A stretch of DNA of 64,000 bases from Rhodanobacter sp. (GCA_004298045.1 SCRM01000022.1:12267-76266); one strand, 5' to 3'. Counted from the first letter of the stretch, positions 1-10,248 are shown. Notes: generated by a model from the letters alone, not told the origin. Made by a program: numbers and translations.

Positions 1-1781
1 ACGGCAAAGTCGAGCACACCAAGCAATGCGTCGCCGCAGTGCAGGTGATGGTCGAGAAAGCCAAGCGGGCGGTCGGGCGTCATCGCCTCCAGCCACAACG
101 CGGTGCGCGCCAGCTCCAGCGCCATGGGGTTCACGTCCACGCCGTAGACGCAATGGGTGATGACGTCGCGCAGCGCATGGCGGTACTCCATGCCCGATGG
201 CGTGCCATCGCTGCGCACACGGGCAAGATGGCCAGCGAGGCGGCGCGCTGCGGCCAACAGAAAATGCCCGCTGCCGCAGGCCGGGTCGCACACGGTGATG
301 GCGAGCAGCGCGGCCTGCGCATCGCTGGCGCCGGCGACGCGCGCGGCGATGACCGGCTCCAGCGCGGAATCCAAAAGTTGTTGCACCAAAGCTTCGGGCG
401 TGTAGTAGCTGCCGGATTGCTTGCGCTCGTTGCCGGCGCTGGCGGCAGCATCGGCAAAGCCGAAGCGGCGGCCGTGCTCGGCGATGACGGGCACGAGTTC
501 CAGCAGGCTTTCGTAGATGCTGCCCAGCTCCTCCGGGCCCATGTCGCGCCAGTTGATGCGCACCAGCGCGCTATTGGCACGCAGCCAGCCCAGATGGAAC
601 ACGGCTTCAAGCAGGGCGGCGTTGGGCAGCTCGGCAGCATCGAGGTCGGGGCACTGGTCGGCGGCAAACAGGCCGCCGAGCGCGGGCAGCGCCAATAGCG
701 TCTGGCCTTCGGCCAAGCCGCGCCACACCGGGGCAAGGCCCTGCCACAGATCGCGGTGGCGATCCCAGGCGCGACGGCGACGGGCGCGATCGCGCAGGCG
801 CTGCAGGCCGTAGCCCTCGCGGTAGGTGCGCACCGCCGCAGGGTCGGCGCCCTCGGGGTGCAGCAGGCCGCGCTCTTCGATGGTGAGCAGGAACAGGCAG
901 CGGTAGACCAGACGCAGCAGTTGGCGGAAGTAGGCGTCTTTGCCCAGTTCGCCGGTAGTGAGGCGCGCGCGCAGTGCTTCGTTGCCGGGCGCGGAAAGAA
1001 AGCCCTGCCCCAGTGCCTTGAGCGCAGCGGTGACGCCTTGGCGCAAATCGTTGCGCGCGCGGATGCCCTCTTCGCGGCTGGCGTCGCGCCAGGCTTCGAG
1101 CGCGCATTGCGCGGGCGGGTTGCTGGCGGTGCCGAAGCGGCTGGCGTGGATCAAAAGCCACAGCGCGGAGAAATCGGCAAAGCGATCCTCGGCAAAGATG
1201 CGTTCCAGATCGGCCTCGATCCACGCCGGGCGGGTGAGGCTGGCGTTGTCGCGCGCCAGGCGCAGCGTGTTGCCGTTGCTGCACAAGCCCCAGAGCGCGG
1301 CGTCCTCCACGTTCAAGTAATCCTGCAGCAGACCGAACGGGGTCTTTTGGCGGTGACCGTCGCCAAAGCGGAGATCGCGCTGATCGAGTCCGTGCCCTGC
1401 CGGGGCGATGACGATGGGCAGGCGGCCGCCCAGTGCCAGCGCGGTAATGGGATAAACGTTGTCGCCGATAAGGCGCGGCTCGACCGGCACAAGGTCGTCG
1501 GCGCCAAACACGACGCGCCATAGCTTGGTAATGAGGTTGCGCGAGGCTTCGGCGGGATGCGCCTCGCGCGCGGCGAGGTAGTCGGCCCACTCGGCCTTGG
1601 CCATGTGCCAGTAGCGGCCCAGCTCGTCGCGCAGCTTGAGGCCCTTGGGCACGGCGTAGTCGGCGGGAGCCTGCTGGGGTGCACCGAGTTTGGCCACCTT
1701 GGCCAGCCATTCGGCCGGCAGCAGCGCGCCTTCAATGGTGATGGCGTCAAAGGCGAGCACGGGGTTGCGGTTGTGCGCCAT
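1..1781 (-). CDS. N6-adenine DNA methyltransferase, Eco57I/type IIG-like (DrmMI-like); N-terminal part only, ORF runs off the window's left edge
   Basis: ATG at 1781 overlaps the SNF2 stop (TGATG). Spot manual translation gives MAHNRNPVLAFDAITIEGALLPAEWL..., then DMGPEELGSIYESLL, GNERK..GSYYTP, the SAM-binding motif I CDPACGSGHFL and GVDVNPMA. Not in the ORF track, presumably because there is no stop in the window. Confidence 0.9.
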   Translation of the reverse strand, partial: MAHNRNPVLAFDAITIEGALLPAEWLAKVAKLGAPQQAPADYAVPKGLKLRDELGRYWHMAKAEWADYLAAREAHPAEASRNLITKLWRVVFGADDLVPVEPRLIGDNVYPITALALGGRLPIVIAPAGHGLDQRDLRFGDGHRQKTPFGLLQDYLNVEDAALWGLCSNGNTLRLARDNASLTRPAWIEADLERIFAEDRFADFSALWLLIHASRFGTASNPPAQCALEAWRDASREEGIRARNDLRQGVTAALKALGQGFLSAPGNEALRARLTTGELGKDAYFRQLLRLVYRCLFLLTIEERGLLHPEGADPAAVRTYREGYGLQRLRDRARRRRAWDRHRDLWQGLAPVWRGLAEGQTLLALPALGGLFAADQCPDLDAAELPNAALLEAVFHLGWLRANSALVRINWRDMGPEELGSIYESLLELVPVIAEHGRRFGFADAAASAGNERKQSGSYYTPEALVQQLLDSALEPVIAARVAGASDAQAALLAITVCDPACGSGHFLLAAARRLAGHLARVRSDGTPSGMEYRHALRDVITHCVYGVDVNPMALELARTALWLEAMTPDRPLGFLDHHLHCGDALLGVLDFA

Positions 1782-4564
1782 CAGGCCACCTCCGGCAGCA
1801 ACACAAACGCGGCGACCACATCCACCGGCTGCAACGCGCGCACCTCATAGCGGCCGCGCGCATCGGCGGCCGCGCGCACGCGGCGGTGGTCGGCAAGCAA
1901 CCGGTTTGCCTGCTCCGTTGCCAATTGCGCAAAGCCGTCGGCGCGATCGGCCAGTGCGGCCAGCAGGTTGGCCATTTCGCGCTGGCGCACGGCGTCGGGC
2001 AGGTTGCCGGCGGCCGGGGCTTGCAGCAAGGCCAGCCAGTCGTCGCCCGGCACCACGGCGTTGGCGTCGCGGCCGCACCAAAGCACGGGTACGGCTTGTT
2101 CCACCAGCAGCACGCTGTCGCGCCCGCCGCGATGGGCGCTGATCTGGTGGCGCAGGCGCAGCAGCACCACGCTGGTGAGTTGAGTGACCGCCGGGCTGCG
2201 CCACACGCCGATGCGGCCAAGCGTGGCCAGCTCGCGGCCGTCGCCAACCTCGCCGGTAAGTGCACGCTCCAGAAGCTCATCGGCAAGGGTGGAAACAAGT
2301 GGATGGCTGCGGTGCACGAAGCGCGCGCCGCGCGGCACGGGCTGGCTGAAGCCGGCGGTGAAGTCGGCGTCGACGCCCTCGCCTTCCAGCCGCTCGCGCA
2401 AGCTGGCGGGCAAGGCGGTTACCGGCAGGCGCATGGCGTCGCCAGTGCGCGGCGCAGGCGCAGCGCCCAGACGCGCCATGGCGCGCTCCACAAAGCGCGC
2501 CACATCGGCGCCGTTGCCAAGCACCGCCTGCATGGCTTGCCATTCGGGCAGGACGTCGTCGGGCTTCAGGCGACGCTGGGCAAAGATGGTGCGGTTTTTC
2601 TTGGCTTTTTCGGCGGCATCCACCCAGCACACATCGAGCGCTTGCGCTTCGGGCAAGGTATCGAAATCGAGCGCGTACTGGCGGCTTTCGCCGCGCAGCA
2701 TCACTGCCTGCATCAGCGCCTTGGTGAGCGCGTGGTCGTCGTCGGGGATCGGCACCGGCACGCCCAGCTCTTTGCGGATGCGTTCGGCCTTGCGCAGTAT
2801 CACTTCCAGCACCGCGCCATCGACCGGGTTGTTGGCGCCGTACATGAGCGTGGCGCGGGTAACGGGCGAGCTTTGGCCGAAGCGATCCACGCGGCCTTCG
2901 CGCTGCTCGTGGCGGGTGGGGTTCCACGACAGGTCGTAATGCACCACGGCGTCGAAACCATCCTGCAGGTTGACGCCTTCGGAGAGGCAATCGGTGGCGA
3001 CCAGCAGACGGCGCCCGGCCTGTGCGGCTTCCGCCACCCGGCGTTCGCGCTCCTCGGCGGGGTATTCGCCGGTGACGCAGGCCACGCTGACGCCGGGATA
3101 GCGGCCTTCGAGCTGCGCCGCGAGGTAGTGCGCGGTGGCGATGAAGCGACAGAACACGATGGGGTTGAAGCCATCGGCAATCAGCGCCGAAAGGTGGCCT
3201 TCCAGCATGCGCAGCTTGGGGTCGCCGTTGGCGCCGGCCAGGTGCTCGGCCTGGTGCAACAGGGCTTGCAGCGCCGGGTCGCCGGAATCGGCGGCGGGCG
3301 CCACGTCGTCGGTGGCAAGCTCATCCTCGCTGCCATCGAAAAGGTTGGTCTCGACCGTTTCGGCCTCGCTTTCGGTGGTATGGGCGAGGCGCGTGCGCAG
3401 CGCCTGCACCGCTGCCGCCGGGCTGCTGGCCACACAACGCATGAGCGCCAGCGTGCCCCAGAAATTGAGCCGCTGGTGCAATGCATCGCCGCCACGCGCG
3501 GTGACCTCGCGGCAGTACTCAAGCACGTTGCGGAAAAACACCTCCCACGGGCCATCCAGCGTGTAGGTGAGCTCGCTGGTTTCGCGGCGCGGAAAGATGC
3601 GGTTGTCGTGCCACTCGTCAATGTCGATGCGCCGGCGCTGCACGAAGTGCGCGGCCAGCGCCTCGCGCAATGCGTCCTTGCGCGCGCCCTGCGCCGTGGC
3701 GAGCTCGGCAAATTCGGGCTTGAGCAACGCAAGCAGGCTCAAGAAGCTGTCCTGGTCGCCGCTGTGCGGGGTGGCCGTGAGCAACAGCAGGTGGCGTTCG
3801 GCACCGGCGGCAACATCGCGCAGCAAGGCGAAACGCTGCTGGCGCTCGCGCCCGGCGCTGACGCAGGTGTGGGCCTCGTCGACCACGACCAGCTCGGGGC
3901 AAGCGCGCAGAAAGTCGCTGCGGTGGCGCTCGGATTTGATGTAGTCGAGGCTGACCACGGTGAAGGGGAACGCCTCGAACAGCGACTCGCCCTGCGGCAA
4001 CCCACGCTCCAGCCGCGCCACGCTGCTGGCGGTAACGGCTTCGGCATGCAGGTGGAAGCGCGCAGCCAGCTCGGTGATCCACTGTTCGACCAGATGCGGC
4101 GGACACAGCACGGCAAAGCGGCTGATTTCGCCGCGGTCGTACAGCTCGCGCACGATGAGCGCGGCTTCGATGGTCTTGCCGATGCCGACGTCGTCGGCCA
4201 GCAGCAGACGCACCGGGTCTTGGCGCAGCGCCATCAAAAGCGGCACAAGCTGGTAGGTGCGCGGCTCCACGGCAATGTTGCCGAAGCTGCGAAACGGGCC
4301 GGCGCCGCGACGCAAGGCCATGCGCAGCGCGTCGGTCAGCAGCAGCGCATCGTGCTGGCTACCCTCGTGCGCGGGGTCGAGCGGCGGAAATTGCGTGGAG
4401 GCGATATTCGGCTCCAGGCCGGTGTGGATCAGACAGGTGTCCTCGTCGCTGCCGGCGAGCGGGCGCAGCCTGAGCAGCGGCGCGACGCTGCCGGGGGCAA
4501 CGATCCAGTCGCGGCCGCGCGCGTGCAGCAAGGTGCCGGGCGGGTATTCAGGCAAGGCATTCAT
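1781..4564 (-). CDS. SNF2-family helicase (DrmD-like), 927 aa
   Basis: Motifs LLADDVGIGKT, VVVDEAH, LLLTATPH, ATDCLSEGVNLQ, YDLSWNPTRHEQREGRVDR; N-terminal PGTLLHARGRDWIV segment typical of restriction-associated SNF2 proteins. Confidence 0.9.
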   Translation of the reverse strand: MNALPEYPPGTLLHARGRDWIVAPGSVAPLLRLRPLAGSDEDTCLIHTGLEPNIASTQFPPLDPAHEGSQHDALLLTDALRMALRRGAGPFRSFGNIAVEPRTYQLVPLLMALRQDPVRLLLADDVGIGKTIEAALIVRELYDRGEISRFAVLCPPHLVEQWITELAARFHLHAEAVTASSVARLERGLPQGESLFEAFPFTVVSLDYIKSERHRSDFLRACPELVVVDEAHTCVSAGRERQQRFALLRDVAAGAERHLLLLTATPHSGDQDSFLSLLALLKPEFAELATAQGARKDALREALAAHFVQRRRIDIDEWHDNRIFPRRETSELTYTLDGPWEVFFRNVLEYCREVTARGGDALHQRLNFWGTLALMRCVASSPAAAVQALRTRLAHTTESEAETVETNLFDGSEDELATDDVAPAADSGDPALQALLHQAEHLAGANGDPKLRMLEGHLSALIADGFNPIVFCRFIATAHYLAAQLEGRYPGVSVACVTGEYPAEERERRVAEAAQAGRRLLVATDCLSEGVNLQDGFDAVVHYDLSWNPTRHEQREGRVDRFGQSSPVTRATLMYGANNPVDGAVLEVILRKAERIRKELGVPVPIPDDDHALTKALMQAVMLRGESRQYALDFDTLPEAQALDVCWVDAAEKAKKNRTIFAQRRLKPDDVLPEWQAMQAVLGNGADVARFVERAMARLGAAPAPRTGDAMRLPVTALPASLRERLEGEGVDADFTAGFSQPVPRGARFVHRSHPLVSTLADELLERALTGEVGDGRELATLGRIGVWRSPAVTQLTSVVLLRLRHQISAHRGGRDSVLLVEQAVPVLWCGRDANAVVPGDDWLALLQAPAAGNLPDAVRQREMANLLAALADRADGFAQLATEQANRLLADHRRVRAAADARGRYEVRALQPVDVVAAFVLLPEVA

Positions 4565-4568
4565 CAGG

Positions 4569-7500
4569 TCAACTCAAAAGCTTGGCGAGGCGCGCAAACA
4601 AGACCGTCCACGCGGCAGCGTCCTCGGGAAAACGCACAAAGGTGTAGCCACGATCTTCCCATGCGTTTTGCAGCGTGCGCGGGGTGTCGGGCAAGGCGGC
4701 CGCCACGTAAAGCGCCGGCCAATGCGCGAATGGCGAGGCTTCCGTGGTAACGGCGAATGGTGGCAAGGGTGGCTCGATGCCGGCCGCGGCCGCCTGCCAG
4801 CGGACCAGCCAGCCTGCGGGTTGCGCCGGCGCTGCGGGCACGGCGGCCGGCGCCTCGGCGACCAACGCAGTGCGCGTGGTGGCCAGCCGCCACAACACTT
4901 GCAGCGCGGCCTGGTTGCGACGGTCGATGAGTTCGTGGTCGGGCTGGTTGTAGTAGGACAGCAGGCAGCGGTAGCAGCCGGCGACGCAGTGGGTATCGGG
5001 CTGGTCGTGATGCGACTCGATGGCCGGCCAGTCGGCATCCGGATCGAGCGGCACCTCGTAGTGCATCACGTCCAGCGCGGCGCGGGCGACGCGCGCCAAG
5101 GCATCGGGATCGGTGACCAGGCGCGTGAGCACGCCGGCGCCGCCTTCGGTGGCTTCGTAGAACAACACCCCGGTGCGTTGGCGCGGACTGGGCAGGGACT
5201 CGGCCAGCAGCTCGGCCTCCTCCAGCTGATAGCAGGCCTCGATGCCGCGCTTGAGCGCGTGTTGCAGGGTAACCAGCGCCACCTCGTCCAGCGCAGACGC
5301 CGGCTGCAACAGCAAGGCGTTCTTGTGATCCATCACGTAGGGCACGATGCGTTGCGGGGTGGTCTGGTCGCCGTCGTCGCTGCCGGCATCGTCGTCAGCG
5401 GTTTCCTTCGCCCACCAGCCGGTGCGCGGGTTGATGAGAAAACCGAATTGCTTGAGGTTGCGCCGGCGGCGCAACCCCTTGTTGATGCGCGTGATGGTGG
5501 CGCCGGGGCCGTAGCGCAACTGCAGGATGTCGCCCTGCGCATCGCCGGCCTGCACCGTGCGCGCATCGACGTGGCCATCGCGCGTGCCCCACTGGAACGT
5601 GGTCTGCAGCTCGAAGGCCTGGCGCTGACGATCCTCGTCGTTGGCGGTGATGCGCACCGTGGGTTCGGTGTCGACGTTCTCGATACGGTACAGGCCGTTC
5701 ACCAGCTCGGCATCCGCCAGCGAGCGACCGCAGGCATGGCAATCGTTCCAACTGGCTTCAAAGTGCGCGGCGCCGCAGCCTTGGCAAATACGCACACCCT
5801 GCACCGCCAGCGTGGTGCCCGGCTGCGCCGAATCGGCGCCACTGAGCGCAATGCGCGCCCGCACCACGCGGTAGGCGCGGCCCTCGTGATACACGAGGCT
5901 GCGCGGGCCAAACTCCGAGAGCGCGAGAAAGCGCGGCCGCTGCAGAAAGGTGCTGCGGCCGCGCCTGCCGCTGCTGCCCGGCACATAGGCCATGAGCGGC
6001 AAGCGCGGGAAGTTGTAGCCGGGCAGAAAGCCTTCGGTGGCGAGATAGCGGTAGGTATAGAAGTCGCTGGCGAAGGACTCGCGACCGTGGAGCAGCAGGT
6101 CGATCTGGTTGTCCGCCTGCTGCTGCCGGCGCTGGGCATCCTTGCGCTGCCTGCCATCGGTAATGCTGTAGTCGCGCAGCGTTTCGGCTGCCAGCGTTTT
6201 TTGCCTCTGCGCCGAGGTGAACAGATCGCGCCAGCGGTCGAAGGCATGCGCGAAACGATCCGCCGCCGCGGCGCAGATCGTGGCTGCCAGTGCGTCGATG
6301 CCGGGAAACCACGGTGCAGCCTCGGCCGTCAGATACGGCAGCACCTGCTGCAGCACGCGCTGCATGTGGGTCTGCGCTTCGGCGGTGACGGCGGGTTGGC
6401 TCAATGCCTGCTGCAGGTTGGCGCGCAGCGGAATGCCTGGGTGCGCAGGGTCGACGATGTTGGCGATGGAACTGTCCAGCGCCTGCCCGCTTGCAGCCAG
6501 CCAGATGGCCTGCAGGTGGCTCTCGATCAGGGACTGGTTGGCAAGATCGAGCAGCGGCGGATTGACCACGCCATGCACCATGGCGGTGGGCTCGCGGAAA
6601 AAGTACTGGTCGTGCGGACTGCGCGCGGCGCAATAGGTGACCACCAGCGCCGGCTGGCCGCCGCGGCCGGCACGACCGGCGCGCTGCACGTAGTTGGCCG
6701 GCGTGGGCGGCACGTTGCGCAGGTAGACGACGTTGAGCTCGGCAATGTCGACGCCCAGCTCCATGGTGGGCGAGCAGAACATGAGCGGCAGGAAGCGGGT
6801 GGACTCGCCGGCCGCGAGGGCCTTGGCGCCGATGCTTTCGGGAGCACCCTCCAGCAAATCGTGCCGCTCATCCGGGCCGTAACGGAAACGACCTTCGCGC
6901 ACGGCGCGCAGGTCGGCATCCACCTGCGCGGTGTGCTCGCGGGCCTCTAGCACCAGCAGCGAGCGATTGCGGTCGGCGAGCAGGCCGCCGAGCATGCGGT
7001 ACTGCTGCGCGAAGAAATCGTTGTGGCGTTTGCCTTGCCCATCGCCTACGGCAAACCGCACACGCCCGACGTTGAGCCGGTAACCGGGCACGTTGAAGCC
7101 GGTGCTCTCGTCGCGGCGCACGAAACCGCCTTGTTGCGCGGCGTGGATCATGGCTTCAAGCAGATGCTGATAGTCGGCTTGCTTGAGGTTGGTGGCCGCC
7201 GGTGACCGCCACAAGTCCGTATCGCGCAGGGTTTTGCCAAGCCGCGATTGCGAGCCGCCACGCAGCAGCAATTCCTCATCCGCCGCGGTCAGGCTGCGCC
7301 GTGCTGGCGCCACGAGGTAAAGCCAGCGCCAACCGTAGGGTTGCTCTTCCCGGGCGAAGCCCCAAGGGTCGCGCAGTAGGCGACGGGCATCCTGGCGGTG
7401 CTGTTCGAGCATCTGCGGATCGAGCACGGCGGCATCGACCGCCAGCCCCTGCCGCATATAGTCGAACAAGGCGCGGAACACCGCCGCACGAACTTCGGGC

Positions 7501-9830
7501 ACGGTCGAGCGCAGCAAGTCGGGGCTCGCACGAAAGCGCGACTCGTCGGCGCAGAACTCGTCGAGGCCAACGTAATCGACCCGCAGCAAACCCAGCTCTT
7601 CCAAGTTGGGATTGGTGTAGCGCCAGCCGCGCCGCTGGTCGAACCAGGCGCGATAGGCCAGCACGAAACGCAGCACGGATTCGGCCTGAGCCAGATCGCG
7701 CCCGGTGGCCGATGGATCCTGCATCCATTCGGCGCGATGGCTGTCGGCAGGGTCTCCGCCTTGCGGTATGCCGCGGTCGAAACCGAGCGCCGCGCAGATC
7801 GCGTTGCCGAACTGGCTGTCAGCCAAGCCGCCGCCGGCCTGTTCGAGCGCGCGGTACACCGCGCCGCGCAGCAGGCTGACAAAGGTGTAGTCGTTGAAAT
7901 GCCCCGCTTGCAGCGCAGCGTCCTGGCGGTTGTCGGTGAAGCCGAGCAACTTGCGCTTGTAGGGATCGACCCCGGCCGTCTTGCCATGCAACCAGCGCAA
8001 GGCACTGGTTGCCAACTGCGTCGTGGCCGAGCTGCGGCCTTCGCCGGACAGCGACGCGAGGCGGTTAATGTCCTTGCCCTGTGCACCATGCACCGTGCGG
8101 CAACGCAGGCAGTAGCGGAACTTGCCAGGGGAAAACCACACGCCCTGCCCCGAGCCGACGCGACCATCCGGCGCAACCTGCAGTGGTTCCGCAGCACGCG
8201 CCTGATACGTCCGTTTCAGGCGCGGCCCGTCGCGCTTGGTGGTTTCGACCCAGGCCTCGGGGTAGTCCTCGATGCGACCTTCAAATTCGGACGGATCGGC
8301 CGGGTCGACCGGCATCGCAAAACCAACGCGTTCGCCATGCGCATCGTCGGCATCCTCGCTGGCATCCGGGTCGACCGCGCGCCGCATGTCGTCGATGCCG
8401 CGTGCCAACAGTTGCTGGCCGTCAGGTCCCTTGACCAGGCGAACGCTCAGGTACTCCTGCCCGCAGTCGCGGCAGAAGTAGACCGGATACAGGCGCTTGG
8501 TTTCATCCGCGGGCAGGAATTGCTGGCCTTCCAATTCGACCGGCCGCGTGCCGGGTGCATCCAGCGTGGTCAGTGCATTGCCGGCGCCGCTGATGAACTG
8601 GTGCAGACGGAATGCAAAGAACGGGAGCTCGGCGCCGCTGCCGCAACGCTCGCGTTCGGGCATGGCGGCAACCAGCAGCAACTGGCGCAATGCCGCTTCG
8701 GCATCGGCAGGATCGCATCCGGCTTCATCGGCAAGCTGCCGGCTGGCCACGGCGAGCGTTCGCGGCTTGGCCCGTTCCCACTTTGCCGCAGGCGTTGCGC
8801 GCGACAGGCCAAGGCGGGTCTCGATCCAGATGGCCAACGGGTGTGCTGTCAGCGCGGCATCGGTGATGCGTTCCAGGTTCGGCTTGGCGACGACGTCGCG
8901 CAGGCGGCCGCGCACGGATTCGGCGGTTTGCGCCGGGTCGGTTGCGCGCTCCAGCTCTTCGGTAACGATGTTGAACGACGGGATAGCCGTCGCAAACAAT
9001 GTGGAAGCCACTTCGGCCACCTTGGCGTTGCGATCTGCCTCGCTGCCGCCGGAAGCCATCGTGGCCGAAGTGCCGATGCACAACAGGTCGTTCGCGGCGA
9101 GCCGGTCGCGCACGCGACGCACCAGCATCGCCACGTCTGCCCCCTGCCGCCCGCGATAGGTGTGCAACTCGTCCAGCACCAGGAATTGCAGGTCGTGGCA
9201 GTTGTCGATGACGGCGCGATCGAGCTCGCCCTGCCGCGTCATCAACATCTCCAGCATCATGAAGTTGGTAAGCAGGATGTCCGGCGGGTTGTCCTTGATG
9301 CGCGCGCGCTCGTCCTGGCTCTCCTGCCCGGTGTAGCGCGCAAAGCTGACGCCGCTGCCGTTGCTCAAGTACTTGGTCAACTCCTCGCGCTGGCTGTTGG
9401 CCAATGCGTTCATCGGATAGATGACGATGGCGCGGGTGCGCGGGCGCGGATCGGGCGCCTTTGCGCGCAACACGGCGTCAACGATGGGGATGAAAAAGCA
9501 CAACGACTTGCCGGAGCCGGTGCCCGTGGTGACCACGAAGCTCTGGCGACGGTGAGCGAAATCGATGGCCTGTTCCTGATGGGTATAAAGGCGCAGGTCA
9601 AACGCGCTGGCGGTTGCCGGCAGCAAGGTGCCGGCCGCGGCAAGCTCTGAGGTGTGTCGGCCGGAACGGTAGCGCGGGTTGATCTGCACCAAAGGTTCGG
9701 GCCAATAGCGCTTGCTGGCATACGCCTCGTCGATGCGCTCGGCGAGGTCGTGCGCACGAATACTGGTAAACGAACGCGCAAACGCGCTGTAGTCCTCGAT
9801 CAGCTGCGTGCGCAGCGCGAATACGTCCAT
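4569..9830 (-). CDS. DEAD/DEAH-box helicase fused to DUF1998/MrfA-like Zn-binding domain (DrmA+DrmB-like), 1753 aa
   Basis: Walker A TTGTGSGKS, DELHTYRG, TSAT, SPTMELGVDI, QRAGRAGR; CxxC pairs; C-terminal LYEATEGGAGVL...CVAGCYRCLLSYYNQ. Start re-picked at MDVFALR (RBS AGGGG). Confidence 0.9.
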   Translation of the reverse strand: MDVFALRTQLIEDYSAFARSFTSIRAHDLAERIDEAYASKRYWPEPLVQINPRYRSGRHTSELAAAGTLLPATASAFDLRLYTHQEQAIDFAHRRQSFVVTTGTGSGKSLCFFIPIVDAVLRAKAPDPRPRTRAIVIYPMNALANSQREELTKYLSNGSGVSFARYTGQESQDERARIKDNPPDILLTNFMMLEMLMTRQGELDRAVIDNCHDLQFLVLDELHTYRGRQGADVAMLVRRVRDRLAANDLLCIGTSATMASGGSEADRNAKVAEVASTLFATAIPSFNIVTEELERATDPAQTAESVRGRLRDVVAKPNLERITDAALTAHPLAIWIETRLGLSRATPAAKWERAKPRTLAVASRQLADEAGCDPADAEAALRQLLLVAAMPERERCGSGAELPFFAFRLHQFISGAGNALTTLDAPGTRPVELEGQQFLPADETKRLYPVYFCRDCGQEYLSVRLVKGPDGQQLLARGIDDMRRAVDPDASEDADDAHGERVGFAMPVDPADPSEFEGRIEDYPEAWVETTKRDGPRLKRTYQARAAEPLQVAPDGRVGSGQGVWFSPGKFRYCLRCRTVHGAQGKDINRLASLSGEGRSSATTQLATSALRWLHGKTAGVDPYKRKLLGFTDNRQDAALQAGHFNDYTFVSLLRGAVYRALEQAGGGLADSQFGNAICAALGFDRGIPQGGDPADSHRAEWMQDPSATGRDLAQAESVLRFVLAYRAWFDQRRGWRYTNPNLEELGLLRVDYVGLDEFCADESRFRASPDLLRSTVPEVRAAVFRALFDYMRQGLAVDAAVLDPQMLEQHRQDARRLLRDPWGFAREEQPYGWRWLYLVAPARRSLTAADEELLLRGGSQSRLGKTLRDTDLWRSPAATNLKQADYQHLLEAMIHAAQQGGFVRRDESTGFNVPGYRLNVGRVRFAVGDGQGKRHNDFFAQQYRMLGGLLADRNRSLLVLEAREHTAQVDADLRAVREGRFRYGPDERHDLLEGAPESIGAKALAAGESTRFLPLMFCSPTMELGVDIAELNVVYLRNVPPTPANYVQRAGRAGRGGQPALVVTYCAARSPHDQYFFREPTAMVHGVVNPPLLDLANQSLIESHLQAIWLAASGQALDSSIANIVDPAHPGIPLRANLQQALSQPAVTAEAQTHMQRVLQQVLPYLTAEAAPWFPGIDALAATICAAAADRFAHAFDRWRDLFTSAQRQKTLAAETLRDYSITDGRQRKDAQRRQQQADNQIDLLLHGRESFASDFYTYRYLATEGFLPGYNFPRLPLMAYVPGSSGRRGRSTFLQRPRFLALSEFGPRSLVYHEGRAYRVVRARIALSGADSAQPGTTLAVQGVRICQGCGAAHFEASWNDCHACGRSLADAELVNGLYRIENVDTEPTVRITANDEDRQRQAFELQTTFQWGTRDGHVDARTVQAGDAQGDILQLRYGPGATITRINKGLRRRRNLKQFGFLINPRTGWWAKETADDDAGSDDGDQTTPQRIVPYVMDHKNALLLQPASALDEVALVTLQHALKRGIEACYQLEEAELLAESLPSPRQRTGVLFYEATEGGAGVLTRLVTDPDALARVARAALDVMHYEVPLDPDADWPAIESHHDQPDTHCVAGCYRCLLSYYNQPDHELIDRRNQAALQVLWRLATTRTALVAEAPAAVPAAPAQPAGWLVRWQAAAAGIEPPLPPFAVTTEASPFAHWPALYVAAALPDTPRTLQNAWEDRGYTFVRFPEDAAAWTVLFARLAKLLS

Positions 9831-10056
9831 GAACACCCCTGACGACGATGGCCCGGCGAATCGGCAGTCACCCCACATCGTCGGGCGACCGCGCAACCGG
9901 TGCGCTCATGCACAGCATGGCTGCGGCCGATCTCGCCGCATGATACGTGACGGAGTCCGTGGAGCTATGGAATCGAATCAGGACGCGCACGAAGGGCATG
10001 CACGCCAACGCGATGGCACAAGGGTGCCGGGGTCATTTTTCGTTTTTCGGCAATTG

Positions 10057-10171: not shown

Positions 10172-10248
10172 TGGTGGCTATGGGTGGGCTCGAACCACCG
10201 ACCCCGGCATTATGAGTGCCGTGCTCTAACCAGCTGAGCTACATAGCC
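10172..10248 (-). tRNA. tRNA-Met (CAT), elongator type
   Basis: Reverse complement GGCTATGTAGCTCAGCTGGTTAGAGCACGGCACTCATAATGCCGGGGTCGGTGGTTCGAGCCCACCCATAGCCACCA: cloverleaf, CAT anticodon, G1-C72 pair, encoded CCA. Confidence 0.97.

Follow-up and report, generated by a model that had tools for sequence, protein, structure and literature searches.

What is the compact helicase-methylase operon that opens a 64,000-nucleotide stretch of Rhodanobacter sp. DNA, and which of the proteins encoded there, or nearby, would cut the DNA of an invading phage? The stretch, called the window here, is contig C11:12267-76266 of a 3.26-Mb genome in 22 contigs, and C11:1-14100 (L001) was taken to read the sequence to its left. 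A preliminary description, made from the sequence alone, proposed that the operon is a reorganised and under-described variant of the class I DISARM anti-phage system. Analysis of the locus gives a different answer. The three genes are an intact copy of ARMADA type I in its published gene order, and they do not make up a new system. The best explanation overall, with a probability of about 0.9, is an ARMADA I armC-armA-armB operon in which the Vsr-type nuclease tail of ArmC is dead, an HNH endonuclease is proposed to act in trans, and a slot behind armB holds a DSR1-type gene.

Calling of open reading frames (ORFs) and Pfam and PADLOC scans of the translations place three large, co-oriented ORFs on the minus strand of window positions 1-9896. 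The gene armC (4569..9830, minus strand) encodes a YprA-family, DruE-like helicase of 1753 aa with a GSGKS Walker A motif and a DELH box. The helicase ORF spans 4569-9896 if counted from an upstream TTG; the start was set at the ATG at 9830 because homologues begin with MDVF. An identical 1753-aa helicase is already on record (P0006). The second gene, armA (1781..4564, minus strand), encodes a RapA/BrxHII-like SNF2 helicase of 927 aa with GIGKT and DEAH motifs and with SNF2-rel_dom and Helicase_C domains (Pfam); its best solved relative is RapA, at 4e-25, and PADLOC matches it to BrxHI|BrxHII at 5e-63. The window contains only the first 593 codons of armB (1..1781, minus strand; ORF 3-1781, open at the edge), for which the domain scans indicate a PglX/DrmMI-like N6-adenine methyltransferase. 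The full gene encodes 1442 aa (C11:9719-14047) and runs 2548 bp beyond the left window edge. Its Pfam domains are N6_Mtase, MmeI_Mtase and Eco57I, and the full-length protein matches Eco57I, N6_Mtase, DrmMI, PglX and type IIG-like models. The S-adenosylmethionine-binding motif DPACGSG lies at residue 499 of ArmB and NPPW at residue 758; the methylase motifs are intact, as are the ATPase motifs of both helicases. Read directly from the sequence, the armC/armA junction is the stop codon TGA, then CCTG, then ATG, a gap of 4 nt, and the armA/armB junction is TGATG, an overlap of 1 nt. The preliminary description had reported this tight packing, the length of the helicase and the domain content of the three products (DEAD and DUF1998, SNF2, N6-adenine methyltransferase), and all of it is borne out.

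ARMADA was described as a DISARM-related system by Bell et al. 2025 (PMC12458937; bioRxiv 10.1101/2025.09.15.676423). As the text of that paper has it, ARMADA comprises clades of YprA helicases whose partners, a BrxHII/RapA-like helicase and a PglX-like methylase, are also found in class I DISARM, with a YprA helicase that is closest to that of Druantia. The type I order is given there as YprA-like ArmC, RapA-like ArmA and PglX-like ArmB, and the window has its YprA-like, BrxHII-like and PglX-like genes in the same order. QKI68291.1 from Achromobacter xylosoxidans (P0130), which is 67% identical to the window ArmC over the full length, is labelled 'ARMADA Type I helicase' in the authors' Table S1. 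The table also includes Pseudomonas sp. RHF3.3-3 CP182250, which corresponds to related locus L041, and author-listed type I orthologues stand at 67% and about 45% identity to the window. The accessions of the window itself were not found among the Table S1 entries examined.

Phylogeny and pairwise scores lead to the same assignment. In a maximum-likelihood tree, a small and quick one rather than the authors' full tree, 27 type-I-like ArmC proteins form one clade with a Shimodaira-Hasegawa-like approximate likelihood ratio (SH-aLRT) support of 99. The window ArmC pairs with the listed Achromobacter protein with a support of 100 and shares its clade with the author-listed L041, and very long branches part the clade from the ArmC-II and DruE-III proteins of E. 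coli. In searches of E. coli ATCC 8739, the window ArmC finds ArmC-II at 164 bits and DruE-III at 139 bits, and the window ArmA and ArmB find ArmA-II at 148 bits and ArmB-II at 124 bits. ARMADA type II (armABCD; E. coli NCTC 12900 / ATCC 8739 / EDL933; PMC12458937; mBio 2026, PMC13463889) has homologous ArmA, ArmB and ArmC and is the sole experimentally tested relative in the published accounts. It differs by an opposite gene order, by an extra ArmD, a RelE-GajB-like helicase, and by a larger ArmC of 2113 aa with extra nuclease-like domains, to which the similarity in sequence is distant. No ArmD, the mark of type II, is found downstream of the window operon, where the genes are those for DSR1, unknown ORFs, the HNH protein and an integrase.

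The preliminary description had called for a survey of the gene order, and the three-gene order does recur. Related loci were taken as the best 80 of 600 matches in a scan that used one genome per species. Where the contig allows a judgement, ArmC is followed by ArmA in 64 of 67 loci, and in 57 of 60 ArmB comes after ArmA, with median intergenic gaps of a few bases. These best 80 loci span at least 10 phyla, namely Pseudomonadota, Myxococcota, Acidobacteriota, Chloroflexota, Planctomycetota, Actinomycetota, Spirochaetota, Verrucomicrobiota, Gemmatimonadota and Calditrichota. Among the kin of the window, ArmC is found in one of 19 other species of the genus, in none of 21 further genomes from its family and order, and in 9 of 399 genomes of a sample of the class; this patchy occurrence is consistent with a mobile defence element. 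At least four other assemblies contain identical copies, which have the same flanks and are likewise followed by DSR1. The ArmC homologue in the one other species of the genus (G004:C1:115143-120440) is divergent, with 49% identity; its open frame of 2138 aa exceeds the window protein by about 380 aa and may include an additional domain.

The kinship to class I DISARM that the preliminary description saw is real. The product of armA matches PADLOC DrmD at 3e-78 and that of armB matches DrmMI at 7e-63, an SNF2 helicase, an N6-adenine methylase and a DUF1998-type helicase module are common to both systems, and ARMADA is by definition DISARM-related. It had further been supposed that DrmA and DrmB are fused in one polypeptide that has been placed first, but such a reorganised DISARM is very improbable. 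With the PADLOC library, a 2023 release that is older than ARMADA, the window helicase scores 294 bits (7e-88) to DruE3 versus 52 bits (7.5e-15) to DrmA, and its 67%-identical orthologue is listed by the authors as ARMADA type I. The published text puts ArmC in the Druantia/ARMADA branch (PMC12458937), and PADLOC, the E. coli scores and the tree agree. Class I DISARM (drmD, drmMI, drmA, drmB, drmC) splits the helicase and DUF1998 over two genes, whereas the window has a single ORF; the DISARM helicase belongs to another branch of the YprA family, and DISARM has the PLD nuclease DrmC. The absence of drmC that had been remarked on holds beyond the window edge as well, given that no PLD, DrmA or DrmB was found beside the operon or across 12 kb to the left of the window; the canonical drm genes past the left edge that would have spoken against a variant system are therefore not there.

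A variant of Druantia, with a DruE helicase and a methylase as in its type II, is slightly less probable still. The best PADLOC matches of the helicase are indeed DruE models, its closest solved structures are probably DruE, helicase chains of 2108 aa and 1970 aa (9tu7, 9wae), and the DruE of Druantia III is likewise a YprA-like helicase in one large chain, with inserts laid out in the same way between the RecA lobes. However, that DruE carries PLD-type domains at its C-terminus and is partnered by DruH, not by a methylase or SNF2 protein, and no DruA-D, DruM/F/G or DruH partner is present at the window locus or in the 80 related loci. The conserved SNF2 and PglX-like partners are those that define ARMADA, and the window helicase scores better with ArmC-II than with DruE-III of E. 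coli, as given above. PADLOC also assigns armA to 'DpdE' (PDLC02853, 1e-193, full length), but a Dpd system was rejected, as no dpdA-C or other Dpd genes are near and the 2023 library predates ARMADA. The claim that the system is under-described does not stand either, since its gene order and architecture are those of ARMADA type I (PMC12458937). The preliminary description had itself named assignment to an already described system of this architecture as a ground for refutation.

The domain anatomy of ArmC is that of an ARMADA I helicase up to its C-terminal tail. One 1753-aa chain carries DEAD, Helicase_C and MZB/DUF1998 domains (Pfam), the single-chain arrangement of the YprA type (RecA1, RecA2, OB-CON-DUF1998), and the YprA/MrfA structure 6znp matches ArmC at 1.4e-26. 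The RecA1/DEAD domain lies at 9054..9584 (minus strand; Pfam DEAD 2e-27, residues 105-281 numbered from the upstream TTG). Two CxxC pairs (CRDC, CLRC) are found in the insert between the RecA lobes at 8100..8474 (minus strand), and 46 homologues all keep C453/C456 and C574/C577. The helicases of ARMADA and Druantia are described as having a zinc-binding beta-barrel module (PMC12458937), for ARMADA I with two or more CxxC and beside BrxA-like and MarR-like inserts between the RecA lobes, and the CxxC pairs of ArmC, so far as sequence can place them, match the position of that module. By the same text, type I has a single OB-region zinc insert where type II and Druantia have two. The window ArmC has a single predicted Cys4 zinc module (CQGC...CHAC) within the OB region at 5730..5786 (minus strand; residues 1349-1367, invariant), the count of type I. 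The MZB/DUF1998 zinc-binding domain follows at 4962..5267 (minus strand; Pfam PF09369, 1.9e-9).

The window departs from the published type I in the C-terminal tail of ArmC (4572..4829, minus strand). The C-terminal Vsr-type nuclease of ArmC is called 'predicted active' in the text of PMC12458937 and 'active?' in its Table S2, whereas the tail in the window is a degenerate Vsr/DUF559-like domain without the catalytic motif: it lacks the D / DG / H-H signature and has a deletion of 10 residues. In one active-looking clade of related loci (e.g. L014-L019, L037, L047, L067-L077), the tail carries PDF...(V/I)DG-x-HH...D...RF. Pfam DUF559 matches 22 of the 23 tails of this clade, and a profile built from signature-bearing tails picks up 3hrl, 3r3p and Vsr. 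Homology between these tails and the window-type tail has an hhalign probability of 97.9% and an E of 4.6e-13, and it is through this comparison of profile with profile alone that the window-type tail is linked to Vsr/DUF559. The deletion removes the DG-x-HH segment, no acidic residue is conserved, and the catalytic signature is kept in none of the 120 closest homologues aligned with hmmalign. Pfam Vsr/DUF559 does not match the window tail even at E = 10. In an AlphaFold model, the tail has a predicted local distance difference test score (pLDDT) of 86, and of 92-98 over the last 80 residues. We conclude, from motifs read in the sequence, that the Vsr-type domain of ArmC is probably a catalytically dead remnant in the lineage of the window. 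The departure from a 'predicted active' Vsr is decay at the level of a lineage and no ground to exclude the locus from ARMADA I.

The methylase was considered as another possible source of nuclease activity. A PD-(D/E)xK triad was sought in ArmB residues 1-440 across 49 homologues; ArmB was ruled out as an obvious type IIG nuclease because this N-terminal region has no conserved E-x-K and no Pfam match. Apart from this, ArmB residues from about 1101 to 1240 (L001:10328-10747, minus strand) form an Ala-rich insertion of ~140 residues that most of 48 aligned homologues do not have.

A candidate for the missing nuclease comes from the genes downstream. Clustering of the ORFs that flank the 80 related loci gave a co-oriented HNH_2 endonuclease family of ~255 aa (PF13391; PADLOC PDLC04132) downstream of ArmB, the gene for which often overlaps the armB stop codon and otherwise stands after intervening genes. 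The window genome has one copy, an HNH_2 endonuclease of 248 aa at L001:3605-4351 (minus strand), 5.4 kb downstream of armB and outside the window. It matches the profile of the ArmB-trailing HNH proteins at 1.2e-55, with 35-43% identity over about 240 residues, and its catalytic core, RASH...NG...D..FD, is intact. The best structural matches of its model (pLDDT 91.6) are the modification-dependent HNH restriction endonucleases VcaM4I (6yex, E 9e-9) and TagI (6ghs, E 0.023), and the window protein has its HNH_2 domain at the C-terminus; the identity is only 19-25%, and the window-family gene is not a stand-alone one but part of a helicase-methylase operon. The N-terminal alpha/beta domain gives weak YjbR/YbjN-like matches alone, and a role for it as a reader of base modification is not established. 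In the 400-genome class sample, full-length HNH matches are found in the window genome and one other, both of which bear ArmC, and the remaining matches cover the generic HNH domain alone. Where the ArmC tail has no signature, the HNH gene is present in 25 of 30 evaluable loci and absent from 5; where the tail has the signature, it is present in 1 evaluable locus and missing in 7. The preliminary description had guessed at a nuclease either at the end of the helicase or encoded downstream, and the guess was right.

The interval between armB and the HNH gene behaves as a cargo slot. The slot is empty in 9 loci and holds an LmuB-like ATPase in 8. Elsewhere its genes encode the PtuA of Septu, a HEPN/RES protein, a GmrSD_N-HNH enzyme, a further HNH or HD/dGTPase-like proteins, one of which carries a DarG-like macrodomain. 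The LmuB/DUF2326-like ABC ATPase, of ~650 aa, is the second co-oriented family found downstream of ArmB (examples are L012:22664-24640, L041:22568-24517, L089:22473-24416 and L090:22883-24811). Its members share the Walker A sequence GHGVGKT and a conserved HDSPRE motif, their long middle part is coiled-coil-like, and the similarity to LmuB/DUF2326 is weak. Two close relatives of the window locus have the ATPase in the slot: L090 reads ArmC-ArmA-ArmB-ATPase-HNH and L089 reads ArmC-ArmA-ArmB-ATPase-UvrD-like. In the latter, a Stenotrophomonas metagenome-assembled genome, the UvrD-like helicase (L089:24574-25268, 889 aa) stands at the usual place of the HNH gene and recalls the ArmD of type II.

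In the window genome, the slot is filled by a DSR1-type gene and 1.7 kb without recognisable genes. The DSR1-type gene is complete (L001:6020-9532, minus strand, 2.7-6.2 kb left of the window), encodes 1170 aa with SIR2_2 and DUF4020 domains (PADLOC Dsr1 1.5e-66), and starts 187 bp past the armB stop codon. Four other assemblies with an identical ArmC have it in the corresponding position. Since none of the 80 related loci has DSR1, it is a separate system that has settled in the slot and does not belong to ARMADA. No remnant of the LmuB-like ATPase was found, either between DSR1 and the HNH gene or elsewhere in the window genome. Extended to the family, there is an even chance that in a large branch of ARMADA I the Vsr domain has decayed and a VcaM4I-like HNH protein has taken over cleavage, with the gap between armB and the HNH gene a hot spot for unrelated defence genes that are perhaps co-expressed or cooperating. 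The text of PMC12458937, figures aside, mentions no decayed tail, trailing HNH gene or variable slot, which is not proof that these features are undescribed.

ARMADA II provides direct, non-abortive defence that, according to the published accounts, needs all its genes, the Walker motifs and NPPW (PMC12458937; PMC13463889). Hypermodified phages escape it. DruE is a 3'-to-5' DNA helicase that recognises single-stranded DNA. By analogy with ARMADA II, DISARM and Druantia III, the ArmB of the window would mark host DNA by N6-adenine methylation, and ArmC would load on exposed single-stranded or forked, unmodified phage DNA and translocate. ArmA, a RapA-like Swi2/Snf2 motor, may assist on the DNA. 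In short, the three proteins would together block phage replication directly, with no killing of the cell, and the 248-aa HNH endonuclease, not ArmC, would cut DNA in trans.

The HNH gene could also be an unrelated passenger of the island, a stand-alone modification-dependent enzyme, with the three ARMADA I genes acting alone and in need of no dedicated nuclease. That is less likely than not. In its favor, the HNH gene of the window lies well away from armB, past DSR1, its fold matches that of stand-alone type IV enzymes, and 7 of the 9 other ArmC-bearing genomes of the class sample have no HNH match. Ofir et al. are said to have found in 2018 that DrmC is dispensable in DISARM, which counts the same way. 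On the other hand, in many loci that are phylogenetically far apart a gene of the same full-length HNH family comes directly after armB or overlaps it, the orientation of the HNH gene is kept across varied cargo, and full-length matches in the class sample are confined to ArmC-bearing genomes.

Several results weigh against an ARMADA I operon with a dead tail and an HNH nuclease in trans, the missing HNH matches in the class sample among them. Because armB and the HNH gene are separated by DSR1 and a further 1.7 kb without annotation, co-expression in the window genome is unproven, and scans for promoters and terminators did no better than on shuffled sequence. The association between the HNH gene and decayed tails is only suggestive because the tail states sort into two or three clades of the tree instead of reflecting independent events, and the L019 clade has an active-looking tail and an HNH gene together. 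Foldseek with the model of the window tail gives weak Vsr-like matches alone (3r3p E 2.9, 3hrl E 5.4). The proposed mechanism is drawn by analogy from other systems, and the experiments found in the literature are for ARMADA type II only, with none for type I.

The genes after armB all lie on the same strand and are those for DSR1, two unknown ORFs, HNH_2, a tyrosine integrase and an HD-domain protein. The HNH gene is flanked by ORFs of 202 aa (L001:4390-4998, minus strand) and 219 aa (L001:2949-3608, minus strand), which have no Pfam or PADLOC match and no homologue in related loci, and may be spurious in such GC-rich DNA. The tyrosine integrase (Arm-DNA-bind_2 and Phage_integrase; L001:1476-2870, minus strand) marks the far end of the island, with the HD-domain protein (L001:561-1469, minus strand) beside it. 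At the other end, a gene for tRNA-Met (CAT) lies at 10172..10248 (minus strand), 341 bp upstream of armC, and is a probable integration anchor. The preliminary description had placed the operon at a tRNA-anchored island end. The tRNA gene and the integrase, ~20 kb away at the contig start and 1.4 kb from the contig end, speak for this, but no direct repeat of the tRNA-Met end of at least 12 bp was found. Synteny at tRNA-Met is not conserved in comparison with genomes of the same genus. A tRNA-anchored island is plausible.

The compact 'DISARM-like' trio of Rhodanobacter sp. has a name and a published family, and it should not be counted as a new system. In the lineage of the window, the nuclease of the helicase appears to be lost, a separate HNH gene is its likely replacement, and a recurrent insertion slot accommodates defence genes. 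The change of nuclease and the slot offer handles on how helicase-methylase systems kill phage and on how defence islands assemble.

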